64,000 nucleotides of DNA from Octopus vulgaris (Eukaryota). Location: the NCBI GenBank assembly GCA_951406725.2, contig OX597832.1, positions 55,924,001-55,988,000 on the forward strand. The letters run 5' to 3'. The notes under the pieces were generated by a model that made no database searches, was not told the DNA's origin, and worked only from the letters and a program-made list of their open reading frames with translations. A program made the translations under genes and the position numbers. Below, in pieces: positions 7,161-60,553 of this stretch (the first letter of the stretch is position 1; each line of letters starts with the position of its first letter).

Positions 7161-7254
7161 CGTGGTACACGTGTTTCAAGCTTTATAAAACAACCTATTC
7201 TTACATCAATGTGTAATCGACATAACAGATGGTTTAAAGCTCTCTTCAGCCGCA
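7161..7254 (-). ncRNA. Type I hammerhead ribozyme motif, complete core
   Basis: Minus strand: UGCGG CUGAAGA GAGCUUUA [49 nt] UAAAGCUU GAA ACACGUGU A CCACG. Stem II is 8 bp, stem III is a perfect palindrome, and the cleavage triplet is GUA. Stem I has one C.A mismatch. Confidence 0.8.
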
Positions 7255-7578
7255 TGCAATTGCTATACCATAGAATTACATCACATTATGAAATTATGAA
7301 GCATCCGAAAATGTACATTTGGTATTATCTATAATGGTGGGTATATTAAGTTTCACTGAGGAAGTATGTTTGTAAATCTTCATAATCAAATATGTGTGTA
7401 GGGTACCATTGGACTTCAAAAGTCCGTCCTTACTCTATCATCATCCAAAGAAGATTAATTCAACTTATACACGCATCTCATCCCGATGCAGTGTGTAAAC
7501 TTTTCAGATTTTCATTTTGCATTCACTACTTCATATCAGTATATTATCTTCATCTCCCTACGACAGCGACATCAGTTC

Positions 7579-7716
7579 ATAGATAGATAGATAGATAGAT
7601 AGATAGATAGATAGATAGATAGATAGATAGATAGATAGATAGATAGATAGATAGATAGATAGATAGATAGATAGATAGATAGATAGATAGATAGATAGAT
7701 AGATAGATAGATAGAT
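7579..7716. repeat. (GATA)n microsatellite
   Basis: Directly visible. Confidence 0.98.
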
Positions 7717-8283
7717 CTTATAGCTGGTCCTTGCTCTTGAACATTTATTTACAAAATGTCCCCAATCTCTTTATTCAAAACTCTTTTCAACAATACATTC
7801 CAGGATTTTTTCGTCAGATTCTTCAGCCGCCCGAGCAATCCATAAATTTGGCATATTTTTTCTTTATCTCGGATTGCTCATCATTTTTATTTCTCTGTTT
7901 TTTATTCTTCTTTCTTTATTCCTTCTTTTTTTTTTTTTCTTTCTTTGATGTTTCTCTTTTATTTATGTTGGCAACAGACGTCTTCTATTTGAAATAACAA
8001 TTCTTCACCATTCGCCAGACGGAAATCTATCCCGCTTCCCTCATCTACTCCACGTTCCTCAGTTTGCCATTCATCTCTCCATCTCCCCATCCCTCTTCCA
8101 CCTGATTTTTTTCCGGTCATTTAAAGAGAAAAATTCAGCAGAAATGAACACTGCCATATTTTGACAATCTTTCTCGTAGACATGTCAAATATATCCATTT
8201 CTGTTTCGTGTTAATTAACAACTGCTGCTGCTGCTGCTGCTGCTGTTGCAGTATATCGTACAACTGCTACCGCCAGTGGTTAA

Positions 8284-9128
8284 TTCTTTTTCTACTCTAG
8301 GCACAAGGCTCGAAATGTTGGGGGAGGAGGCCAGTCGATTAGATCCACCCCAGTACGCAACGGGTACTTAATTTACCGATTCCAAAAGGATGAAAGCAAA
8401 GTGAACCTCGGCGGAATTGGAACTCAGAACATAAAGAAAAACGAAATATCGCTAAGCATTTCGCCCGGCGTACTAACGTTTCTTATTTCTTTTGTTGCCC
8501 ACAGGGGGCTAAACATAAAGGGGGAAAACAAGGACAGACAAACGGGTTAAGTCGATTATATCGACCCCAGTGGGTAACTAGTACTCATTTTATCGACCCC
8601 GAAAGGATGAAAGGCAAAGTCGACCTCGGTGGAATTTGAACGCAGAACGTAAAGACAAACGAAATACGTATTTCTTTACTACCCGCAAAGGGCTAAACAC
8701 AGAGAGGACAAACAAGGACAGGCAAACGGATTAAGTCGACTATATCGACCCCAGTACGTAACTGGTACTTATTTTATCGATCCCCAAAGAATGAAAGTCA
8801 AAGTCGACCTCGGCGGAATTTGAACTCAGAACGTAACGGCTTACGAAATACCGCTAAGTATTTCGCCCGGCTTGCTAAAATTTGTGCCAGCTCGCCGCCT
8901 TTAATTCTTTTCTACTCTAAGCACAAGGCCCGAAATGTTGGGGGAGGGGGGGCACTCGATTAGATCGACCCTAGGACGCAACTGGTACTTAATTTATCGA
9001 CCCCGAAAGGATGAAAGGCAAAGTCGACCTCGGCGGAATTTGAACTCAGAACGCAACGGCAGACGAAATACCTCTAAGCATTTCGCCCGGCGTGCTAACG
9101 TTGCCGCCAGCTTGTCGCCTTACCGCCT
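8284..9128 (-). mobile_element. SINE family A tandem array (4 units) with a flanking TSD
   Basis: Repeated reverse-complement copies of GAGTTCAAATTCCGCCGAGGTCGACTTTGCCTTTCATCCTTTCGGGGTCGAT. Flanks are TACCGCCAGTGGTTAA (8268-8283) and TACCGCTCGTGGTTAA (9129-9144). Confidence 0.88.
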
Positions 9129-10676
9129 TACCGCTCGTGGTTAACTGAGCCAATAAAATGAAGAGAACTGTGTTATATCTTTACCGTTTTCACATACACT
9201 CTTTGTAACTTCCTTTTCAAATCTACTCTTATCTGATCTAATTAGCGGTTCCAGAATATATAAATTCTTACCATTCTTCAAGAGCTATTTTATCCATAGG
9301 TGGTAATCCTATTATTTCGAAATCCCTTCCTCTTACCCGCCCATACATTAACCCAATTTTCGTTCTTACCGTAGTTTATAATCAGTTGGTAAGCTACATT
9401 ATTTTGTGCAGAAAAGAAGAAGAAAAAACGAATAAAAGACACGGTCTCCCTGGATGTGGGAGTCAATAGATTGTTTTATTTATTTATTTATTTATCTATT
9501 TATTTATTTATTTATTGCTCTTTTTATTTGTTTACTTATGTATTTCTTCCTTGCTAAGACTTCATGACCAAACTATATTGGTTAAACACATAAGCTTGGG
9601 GAGAAAGGAACAAAAAAAAAACCACACACACATCAAAGCCCAACCACCTGTTATTTTTCGATTGCACGAAGCGTTCTCTGGCGGAGAATTAGTAATCTAT
9701 CTGTCCAATAAGCGATGGAATTTACGTCAATTTCGTTCAGACAAAGGTACAAACAAAATCGCTAAGTCACACGAAAGAAGGAAAGAAACAAAAAACAACA
9801 ACAAAAGAAAAACACAGAACATGATTATCTTTTTTCTTTCTTTAATGTATTGCTCTACATTTTTTTTTACCTTCTTTCGTTTCCTGCACTGAAATTACAC
9901 TGGGATATAAATGTGTGTGTGTGCGTGTGTGCGCATATATATATATATATGTGTGTGTGTGTGTGTTTGTGTGTGTGTGCGTGTGTGGGTTTGTGCGTAT
10001 ACATATATATATACATATATGCATAAATATATATACATATATGCATATATATATATATATATATATATATATACGTATATAAACATCTATATATGTATAT
10101 ATAAATGTGTGCATGTGTGTGTATACACTCATACATATATATGTATAAACACATGCACACATATATATATACACACATATATATATATATATAGATGTAT
10201 GTATATATATATATATATATGCATACACGCTCACAAATACATACAACCCTCCCATACATATATATATACATATATATATATATATATATATATATATATA
10301 TATATATATATATATATATATATATATATATATATATATATATATATACATGCGTACATACCTACATACATACATGCATACACATTCACGCACACACCGG
10401 GCGAAAGAGGGAAGAAGTGGAGAGATTAACTTAGTTCCTGGTTTATTCAACAAACTTTCGTGTCTCGGTGTCTGAGAAAACACGAACCATATGTGAACCA
10501 GATGAACGATTGAATAAATAAATAACTTCAACATCCTGTTACTAACGTTCGTAAGATGGGATGTCCTGACTTCGTCTTCCAATACGAAATAGTTGCAGTT
10601 TCTTTGAAATGCTTTTCATTTCCTTGCCTCAACACGCGGCAACCTTGTATTTCTTGATTGTAGTTAAAAGTTTTTG

Positions 10677-11262
10677 TGCAGGCGTGGCTCGTTGGTAAGA
10701 AGTCTGCTTCTCAACCACAAGATGACACACTGTGACACCTCGGTCAAATGTCTTCTACTATAGCCACAAATATCTTCTACCAAAGCCTTATGGGTGGAAT
10801 CGGTTGACGGAAATAGAAAGAAGAGTCTTTGTATATATGTATTTTTTTAAAGTTTCAGCTCAGAGCTGCGGCCATGCTGATGCACCGCCGTTTGACGACA
10901 ACTGTCAGAAGTGGGATTCGACCCCACGCCTACGGTCGTGGACGAGAATACACAATGTTCAGGCACCTGGCGCCCTAGACCACTCGGCCATTCTGACAGC
11001 TTCATGTATGTATGTATGTATGAGTGTAAGTGTGTATGTATGTGGGTGCGTGCGTGTGTGTTTTGTTTGCCACCCCATCATTGCTTGAGAACCAGTGTTG
11101 GTATATTTTCGTCCCCGTAACTTAGCGATTCGGCAAAAGAAATCGATAGGATAATTACTAGACTTAAAAAAAGTTCTATAGACGTTTCGTTCGGACTAAA
11201 ACTTTTCAACGCGGTGCCCCAGTATGGCCGCAGTCCAATGTCTTGAAACATGTAAAAAGATA
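10677..11262 (+). mobile_element. Diverged SINE family B interrupted by a tRNA-Leu-derived insert
   Basis: The head (10677-10830) and 3' half (11050-11262) match family B. Confidence 0.75.
10903..10997 (-). pseudogene. tRNA-Leu-derived pseudogene (resembles Leu-CAA, apparently with an intron remnant)
   Basis: Minus strand GTCAGAATGGCCGAGTGGTCTAGGGCGCCAG...GGCGTGGGGTCGAATCCCACTTCTGACA gives the eukaryotic tRNA-Leu acceptor, D and T arms. The anticodon arm is degenerate and lengthened. Confidence 0.8.
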
Positions 11263-59465: not shown

Positions 59466-59632
59466 TTTAGATATATGTACCAAGAGACCAATGTGTACGT
59501 ACGCCACTAACACACACACACACACACACACACACACACACACACACACACACACACACACACACACACACACACACACACACACACACACACACACACA
59601 CACATATATATATATATATATATACACACATA

Positions 59633-59766
59633 ACCCGATGGCTTGACACCATCAGGAGTGATACCGGAATGGACATGGCCAATCTGAAGGAAGCGGCCCA
59701 GGATAGAACTGACTGGAGGACACTGATCCAACGAGTGGCCGAGAGTCGACTTCAACTGAGCGGATA
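59633..59766 (+). mobile_element. RTE/BovB-like LINE 3' fragment
   Basis: Translates as TRWLDTIRSDTGMDMANLKEAAQDRTDWRTLIQRVAESRLQLSG, the RTE ORF C-terminal pattern RWLD...DR..WR...V..SR..L. Confidence 0.8.
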
Positions 59767-59780
59767 TATATATATATATA

Positions 59781-60159
59781 CTAGCAGTATCGCCCGGCGT
59801 TGCTCAGGTTTGTAAGGGAAATAACTATAAAGCATTTTTAGAGAGTTATAGCCAAAAAATAGCAAAAAAATGGAAAAAAAATGATGGTAAATTTTTTTGA
59901 GAGTTAAAAAACGTGGAGTTGCGTCCCCTAGACGGTCTGTGGTTTGTGTTTCTGATTCTCGACCCCATGTCGAATTTATCGATTTTTTTCAGAACTGGGG
60001 GAACTTTTCAAAATTTTCGCAGCGTTAGTTTTGAATTATGACATTGGGCTATGTGTGTGTCAAGTTTCATCAGAATCGGTTGAAAGCCGTGGTCAGAGTG
60101 AGGGTACGAGAAAACAGACACACAGAAAACGCACAGACAAACTGCCGTTTATATATAGA
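59781..60159 (-). mobile_element. Non-autonomous Helitron (379 bp)
   Basis: The minus strand starts TCTATATAT and ends CTAG, inserted between A and T. An imperfect GC-rich subterminal hairpin lies at 59792-59808, and there is no TSD. Confidence 0.8.
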
Positions 60160-60424
60160 TATATATATATATATATATACAAGATAAGAAAATGGAGAAA
60201 TACATCTAAATCAAATATCAATTACCTGATAATACTCAATCACATACTTTATTAAACCACCACATAAGAGACTGTAGGGTTAAACATAAAAAAGCAGAAC
60301 AAATCAGTGTACATAAAAGAATGTACATAAAAAAGTGTACATAAAAGAGTAATGTTGTATAATAAGTAGAATATATATAAAAGAGAATATAAATATAAGT
60401 AAATATAATTATAAGTATAGATTA

Positions 60425-60553
60425 AATCTTACAGCTGTTTCGGCCATGTAGATAAGTATGTCTCATTTTACCAATATTAGCCTTTTATGGTAGGTCAATA
60501 TATAGATATAAATGAGACATTTACAAAAATATCATAAGGCCTCTTCGGAGATT
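60425..60553 (-). ncRNA. Type I hammerhead motif with a 92-nt structured stem II insert
   Basis: Minus strand: AAUCU CCGAAGA GGCC [92 nt including an 11-bp helix, 60458-60468 / 60510-60520] GGCC GAA ACAGCUGU A AGAUU. Stem III is a palindrome, the triplet is GUA, and the core has U4C. Confidence 0.75.

Follow-up and report, generated by a model that had tools for sequence, protein, structure and literature searches.

Six motifs with the core of a type I hammerhead ribozyme (HHR) lie in a 64-kb stretch of the Octopus vulgaris genome (GenBank GCA_951406725.2, contig OX597832.1, positions 55,924,001–55,988,000; hereafter the window), raising the question of whether these are genuine hammerheads and, if so, which elements carry them. 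The window is microsatellite-rich, includes 100 N and belongs to a 2.8-Gb assembly of 227 contigs. The motifs are very probably hammerhead-shaped pseudo-long terminal repeat (pLTR) sequences of a Penelope-like element (PLE) system: three belong to truncated Hydra-type 3′ ends and two to non-coding tandem monomers (350 and ~495 nt) likely copied by a PLE enzyme. Families are named here by motif position (F7161, F28578, F37377, F41555, F52897 and F60425), loci elsewhere in the genome carry L numbers, and comparisons with published elements refer to the accessible parts of the cited sources.

Hammerhead motifs and their families

All six motifs are present where the sequence-only reading of the window had placed them, far above chance. 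The strict HHR descriptor gave three matches, against a mean of 0.01 (maximum 1) across 100 block dinucleotide shuffles and none on the reversed window; with one core mismatch tolerated (relaxed descriptor), four matches scored ≥23 (none in 40 shuffles, none reversed) and seven scored ≥17 (mean 0.5 in 40 shuffles). The sequence-only reading had proposed several checks, and in one, the shuffled control, counts are near zero against three to four window matches. Another, an Rfam hammerhead search, returned for the window no HHR at gathering threshold and one tRNA only, with no HHR among the 150 matches listed of 448 by E-value, mostly to microsatellites. Minimal PLE HHRs are known through descriptor searches, not through Rfam hammerhead models. 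A general repeat search of the window returned microsatellite families only, and no PLE open reading frame (ORF) was found inside it by ORF listing or by tblastn with five PLE proteins. The descriptor misses the window copies at 37377 and 41555, the former through A·C (stem II) and A·G (stem III) mismatches private to this copy, the latter through a copy-specific A·C mismatch in stem II; the commonest letters of both families pair in all three stems.

For each family, 40 copies were scored and the top-scoring 30 fetched, so that integrity counts are biased upward and the fractions given here are upper bounds. Genome-wide first-look candidates number 1,981 (F7161), 3,230 (F28578), 2,362 (F37377), 719 (F41555), 2,459 (F52897) and 1,286 (F60425). 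Among 29 other copies per family, the core is intact in 28 (F52897), 27 (F37377), 26 (F60425), 23 (F7161), 22 (F28578) and 5 (F41555), and stem II of F7161 is perfect in 25/29. The commonest letters of the families give the type I arrangement (CUGANGA/GAAA/UH, three stems, open at stem I), except that F60425 carries U4C and a further family, Pa (see below), A6U, hence failing the strict consensus. With cores mostly intact and commonest letters that pair, core and helices are conserved at family level, and these letters also bear out the earlier suggestion that the type I HHRs are of PLE type with a palindromic stem III, which is self-complementary in all six families. Published minimal PLE HHRs (PMC4209133) likewise have an extra nucleotide after A9 and a palindromic, ACGU-type stem III, and occur as many unrelated families per genome, mostly in single truncated copies. 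When one natural copy per family was folded, stem III was predicted to form in the monomer with a probability ≤0.03 in each of the seven motifs, and for five of them the predicted self-duplex came to −9.7 to −11.2 kcal/mol; these modelled energetics would match the pattern expected of dimer-requiring HHRs (PMC4209133).

Three families linked to Hydra-type ORFs

F7161, F28578 and F60425 appear in the window as 5′-truncated 3′ ends (pLTR/3′ untranslated region, UTR) of Hydra-type PLEs. F7161 (7046–7443, minus strand) carries its HHR at 7162–7253 (minus strand; 65-nt stem II arm; stem III ACACGUGU; predicted cut after 7166) and adjoins (TA)n at 6999–7048. In F28578 (28400–28752, plus strand), the HHR at 28578–28638 (plus strand; predicted cut after 28633) has stem III ACUCGGAGU, the same as that listed for Hydra-2_aMil; a second copy (30343–30556) is a fold-back turning at the HHR, with a damaged core. 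F60425 (60177–60605, minus strand) has its HHR at 60426–60552 (minus strand), with core CCGAAGA (U4C), a 100-nt stem II arm, stem III ACAGCUGU and a predicted cut after 60430.

In all three families a Hydra-type GIY-YIG endonuclease is found 1–3 kb upstream of the HHR, in the same sense. Two of six long stretches of F60425 (L182 and L183, from the furthest-reaching copies) run from an ORF through a low-complexity UTR of ~2 kb as far as the HHR, which has the same sense as the ORF, the ORF comprising a reverse transcriptase (RT) C-terminus and a GIY-YIG-type endonuclease; the L183 ORF matched no Pfam family. A GIY-YIG ORF lies 0.9–1.6 kb upstream of the F28578 HHR, in the same sense, in 4/30 loci (weak Pfam GIY-YIG match, E = 0.008). 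For F7161, where the search for loci began from an endonuclease remnant, endonuclease, UTR blocks and HHR region occur in order over 2.7–4.4 kb in 6/12 loci, with RT further upstream and, in L210, a pLTR piece preceding the ORF. The RT is full in F7161 and represented by its C-terminal part only in F28578 and F60425. The CxCX5C linker is present in all three families, and CxxC and CxH flanking the conserved E and N, without CCHH, were read by eye in F7161 and F60425; CxCX5C, CxxC/CxH and lack of CCHH define the Hydra clade (PMC8557442). These motifs, and likeness by eye to the printed alignment, suggest that all three are Hydra-clade PLEs; Neptune was tried as their clade and dropped on the Hydra definition (PMC8557442).

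The published clade includes Hydra-1_Obim from another octopus, Octopus bimaculoides (2,507 bp, (TA)n, HHR listed), and shares with the families here the CxCX5C linker and CxxC/CxH, a sense HHR near the 3′ end with a short palindromic stem III, insertion at (TA)n and inverted, truncated 5′ copies (PMC8557442). Published members are 2–3 kb, whereas the families here have 1–3.4 kb of low-complexity 3′ UTR (F7161 is about 6 kb), Asn-rich ORF insertions, 65–100-nt stem II arms, thousands of copies and, in F60425, the U4C core; the HHR helices of Hydra-1_Obim also differ from theirs. Further PLE types with other linker/CCHH patterns are represented by ORF pieces in L210 (9390–9900), L217 (6408–6990) and L187 (246–800).

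Insertion anatomy and TA targeting

In every family, copies end 3′ at one or two fixed positions downstream of the HHR (about +50/+120, +50/+110, +135/+250, +178/+235 and +250/+425, families together), and their 5′ ends vary and often carry inverted arms, matching the arrangement drawn for PLEs in PMC8557442; in F7161, F28578 and F60425 the 5′ ends vary continuously. (TA)4 is found at the 3′ end in 26/29 copies of F52897, 24/29 of F7161, 21/29 of F28578, 27/29 of F60425, 9/29 of F41555 and 0/29 of F37377, against 5.8% at arbitrary positions. The (TA)n adjacency and targeting suggested in the sequence-only reading thus hold for the first four families, weakly for F41555 and not for F37377; the fold-backs that it described are present and, like (TA)n targeting, are a described PLE trait. 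TA-targeting elements were also seen inserted into each other's (TA)n tails and into UTR microsatellites, giving nested PLE clusters (e.g. L186, L187, L207–L218; window 28752–28946 and 34366–34377).

Two non-coding retrozymes and an old family

F37377 (37209–37658, minus strand) is a non-coding retrozyme with 350-nt monomers that is not TA-targeted; its main arm (37209–37511) meets an inverted arm (37509–37658), and the HHR (37377–37421, minus strand; family stem III AUCGCGAU) has a predicted cut after 37383. F52897 (52756–52976, minus strand; HHR 52897–52960, minus strand, predicted cut after 52903) is a 5′-truncated copy, between two (TA)n runs, of a non-coding retrozyme with a ~495-nt monomer. 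A second copy (34366–34689, plus strand; inverted arm 34366–34486), truncated downstream of the HHR, is inserted where a Pa copy ends in (TA)n. F52897 is young (copies 98–99% identical). Three F37377 HHRs are spaced 350 nt apart in L100; two F52897 HHRs lie 487 nt apart in L278, and partial repeats of 494–497 nt are found in four other loci. The longest ORF is 28 aa in one monomer and 65 aa in the other, and GC contents are 0.38 and 0.33. The 3′ tail equals the sequence upstream of the HHR, and the retrozyme unit is therefore circularly permuted. Circular-fold z-scores are −4.2 and −4.0, not strand specific for F37377 (antisense −4.5). No ORF and no shared divergent upstream arm was found in 30 HHR-anchored loci for either family. 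Assembled contigs from 4/24 sequencing runs, some guessed to be RNA, contain F52897 sequence, with coverage and ~495-nt go-back joints; such joints also occur in the DNA-like run, and no end pile-ups were seen in these contigs, which are uninformative on expression and cleavage.

Both families fit non-LTR retrozymes (tandem non-coding monomers, one HHR each, GC <45%). With those of other metazoans (PMC7229834; bioRxiv 10.64898/2026.07.22.740005) they share non-coding, low-GC head-to-tail monomers, one type I HHR each and a predominance of dispersed monomers or truncated copies. They differ in bearing clear marks of PLE insertion (two fixed 3′ ends, 5′ inversions), in opposite target preferences (TA for F52897, none for F37377) and in host, the examples in the accessible passages being from coral, mussel, axolotl and mainly vertebrates (PMC7229834; bioRxiv 10.64898/2026.07.22.740005) and these from a cephalopod.

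F41555 (41432–41599, minus strand; HHR 41555–41599, minus strand, stem III ACUUCGAAGU, predicted cut after 41560) is an old PLE-like 3′ end with copies 65–80% identical. Upstream lies >1 kb of non-coding sequence with internal ~235-nt repeats; no PLE ORF was found upstream in 30 loci, and there is one weak Neptune-like match, downstream, in L379. In most copies (L121–L150) the start or the point of inversion lies no more than about 10 nt from the HHR core; this, and the F28578 fold-back at 30343–30556, could reflect an RT that pauses or switches strand at the structure.

Pa, an abundant family with A6U in the core

Variant-core motifs had been noted in further repeats, and two, at 33848 (minus strand) and 34241 (plus strand), are present in copies of Pa. 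The former is a minimal HHR-like motif in an apparent Neptune-type PLE 3′ end (33714–33893, minus strand), the latter an A6U core in a family copy at 34178–34377 (plus strand). Another copy (28760–28946, minus strand), with a degenerate core, and F28578 stand back to back on either side of (TA)n, and one at 12613–12718 (plus strand) is truncated inside the motif; a diverged relative at 12786–12849 (plus strand) has an A6 core and a broken GAAA. The motif runs stem I, CUG-U-N-GA, an extra A, a 4-bp stem II, GAAA, CG, UH and stem I, with ACGU as stem III. Counted with a 30-nt exact pattern, U6 gives 14,429 genome matches, A, C or G at this position 500 and the reversed control 0, and U6 is therefore the family state. 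In the first 30 loci listed, N7 is U (12), A (7), C (6) or G (5), position 16.1 is U in 30/30 and position 17 is A (20), U (9) or G (1); downstream flanks are 81% identical within N7 classes and 73% between them. Because the exact pattern imposes motif identity across copies, constraint is suggested rather than measured.

A PLE ORF ends upstream of the motif in L187, L174 and 4/30 unselected loci. The L187 ORF matches RVT_1 (E = 7e-08) and GIY-YIG (E = 0.003), with CX4CxxC and CCHH read by eye; Neptune-type PLEs have RT and C-terminal GIY-YIG, a CX2-5CxxC linker, CCHH and an HHR in the 3′ pLTR, so that the parent of Pa would, by motif, be a Neptune-type PLE.

Changes at position 6 lower activity in known HHRs, and a natural A6C prefers Mn2+ (PMC3088659, PMC7151607). 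This hammerhead, of phage Bcep176, shares with Pa a natural substitution of core position 6, but it is A6C at a single phage locus, with low Mg2+ activity rescued by Mn2+ (PMC3088659, PMC7151607), whereas in Pa the change is A6U and is carried by >14,000 exact copies of a putatively catalytic motif in a retrotransposon family. The core exception named for minimal PLE HHRs in the accessible part of PMC4209133 is U3–A8, whereas Pa has U at position 6; CUGU at two of three places in its supplement lies outside the core in both. Our literature search returned no report of an A6U hammerhead core. We tentatively propose, as an idea with appreciable but less than even chances, that this octopus genome has ~10^5 hammerheads, belonging to dozens of families of PLEs and retrozymes, and that the most abundant of them, at the end of a Neptune-type PLE, has fixed U at the conserved core position A6 while otherwise evolving by hammerhead rules across subfamilies. 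It would then be either a new functional core variant, which dimerisation, a metal ion or the PLE protein rescues, or proof that PLE hammerheads are retained for something other than cleavage.

Several other motifs were seen beside Pa. Pb repeats (41844–42071 and 382–582, plus strand; 58726–58971, minus strand) are TA-flanked and have CUGARGA followed by GAAU; Pb was rejected as an HHR (GAAU, no stem III/I, no convincing three-stem fold). It has two subtypes, with changes on either side of a short hairpin into which the core letters would fall, and is perhaps another terminal structure. Pd is an abundant minimal HHR with a canonical core and ACGU stem III (eight distinct copies in fetched DNA; L252, 1150–1225; L194; L192), and L041 has one HHR (plus strand, ~2017) with a U3–A8 covariant core and CGCG stem III.

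Proposed mechanism and alternative explanations

Under the PLE explanation, a read-through or tandem transcript would carry two HHR copies, whose self-complementary stem III strands could pair in trans (dimeric HHR) and allow a slow cut after UH; unit-length RNA would likely be ligated into a circle, or the multimer might remain uncut. The PLE GIY-YIG endonuclease would then nick (TA)n, and RT would prime from one of two fixed 3′ positions, 50–430 nt downstream of the HHR, and copy through it, usually stopping early or switching strand. Parts of this scheme were observed: 3′ ends at fixed positions, with a longer 'tail' as the alternative, 5′ truncation to varying extents, inverted arms at the 5′ side, tandem copies longer than one unit, targeting of TA, linkage to ORFs and read-through of the cut site. 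Self-cleavage of the octopus HHRs is a prediction.

Several observations weigh against this explanation. With queries restricted to the part downstream of the predicted cut, 28/30 F52897 copies extend ≥15 nt past it and 4/30 copies of F37377 have their end within 4 nt of it, with no 5′-end pile-up in either family; the RT template is therefore a circle or an uncut multimer, and the lack of pile-up fits a circle and equally an uncut precursor. Stem I is poorly predicted (P ≤ 0.22) for F52897, F7161, F60425 and F41555 in short folds, published metazoan PLE HHRs cleave weakly (PMC4209133) and 8/9 Xenopus retrozyme dimers showed no cleavage (bioRxiv 10.64898/2026.07.22.740005). No autonomous partner turned up for F37377 or F52897. 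F7161 has RWA and DKI where the Hydra motifs are RWK and DKT (a DKS variant occurs in one published member; PMC8557442), and a Pfam search of its RT and endonuclease pieces gave nothing significant.

Chance matching in AT-rich repeat DNA, to which the negative Rfam search and the two imperfect window copies might point, has a negligible likelihood given the near-zero shuffled and reversed controls and family letters that repair the mismatches. It is also very improbable that all six are non-autonomous self-cleaving mini-elements, as the sequence-only reading had it: the window copies are indeed short and non-coding, F37377 and F52897 are ORF-less tandem monomers, and F41555 has no upstream ORF in 30 loci, but F7161, F28578 and F60425 continue upstream into GIY-YIG ORFs (F7161 also into RT) at several independent loci, and their 5′ ends vary continuously. 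That proposal is refuted for these three families and stands for the two retrozymes. A stronger rival, still unlikely in our estimate, is that the folds are structural signals (for RT or ribonucleoprotein recognition, dimerisation or RT pausing) that do not require cleavage in vivo, with catalysis weak or vestigial. Most copies read through the cut site, the HHR is where many inversions of F41555 and F28578 turn, activity in vitro is low in the literature, and core changes for which lowered activity is reported or expected are found in two very successful families (U4C in F60425; A6U in Pa, with its 14,429 matches), all of which would suit such signals; against this, the cores of 29 unrelated families keep to the catalytic consensus at all but one position, and Pa keeps the cleavage-site rule (U16.1 in 30/30, A or U at position 17 in 29/30).

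Density and diversity across the genome

In forty 10-kb stretches at round coordinates (400 kb), 13 matches scored ≥23, or ~1 HHR per 31 kb, at least one of which looks like chance (reversed control 1). The four window matches compare with 2.1 expected (Poisson P about 0.16, by hand), and the density that had drawn attention to the window is not special to it (4 per 64 kb versus 13 per 400 kb elsewhere). Extrapolation gives roughly 85,000 near-intact motifs genome-wide (about 45,000–150,000), from no fewer than 29 families. In 1.5 Mb of fetched DNA, which is redundant and enriched for the six families, 233 matches fall into 29 sequence clusters, 18 of them singletons (reversed control 0), bearing out the diverse radiation that had been proposed. 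High HHR diversity within one genome has been described (PMC4209133); a coral has >6,000 HHRs in 16 families and axolotl 126,247 (PMC7229834).

Other features of the window include an Rfam tRNA match (10903–10997, minus strand; 39 bits) with a Leu-like long variable arm, either a gene or a short interspersed element (SINE) head. An abundant repeat with a ~185-bp unit, dispersed and in tandem (8491–8900, 15442–16075, 44174–44564 and 48472–48881), is presumably an octopus tRNA-derived SINE, and a 125-aa frame (49361–49735, plus strand) has a C-terminal motif that we take to be mariner-transposase-like.

Relation to described elements and significance

The sequence-only reading had left undecided whether such families were described; the kind is, in PMC4209133, PMC7229834, PMC8557442 (including Hydra-1_Obim) and bioRxiv 10.64898/2026.07.22.740005. 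[quoted passage not shown] The O. vulgaris repeat annotation (PMC13282606) lists 31 recently active PLE families, with 'ribozyme' absent from the accessible main text, and the families here may already be named in repeat libraries.

The most unusual part is the variant-core Pa family, and it is scale together with the A6U family that carries the main interest. The link between HHRs, PLEs and retrozymes is known. For the question of what the HHR contributes to PLE transposition, young families with high copy numbers in this genome supply a matched set of natural variants: canonical (F52897), U4C (F60425) and A6U (Pa). The opposite target preferences of F37377 and F52897 predict different partner endonucleases. 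The Hydra clade is extended from short elements in few families to long-UTR families with thousands of copies, and our results point to PLE ends as the identity of many short octopus repeats with TA flanks.

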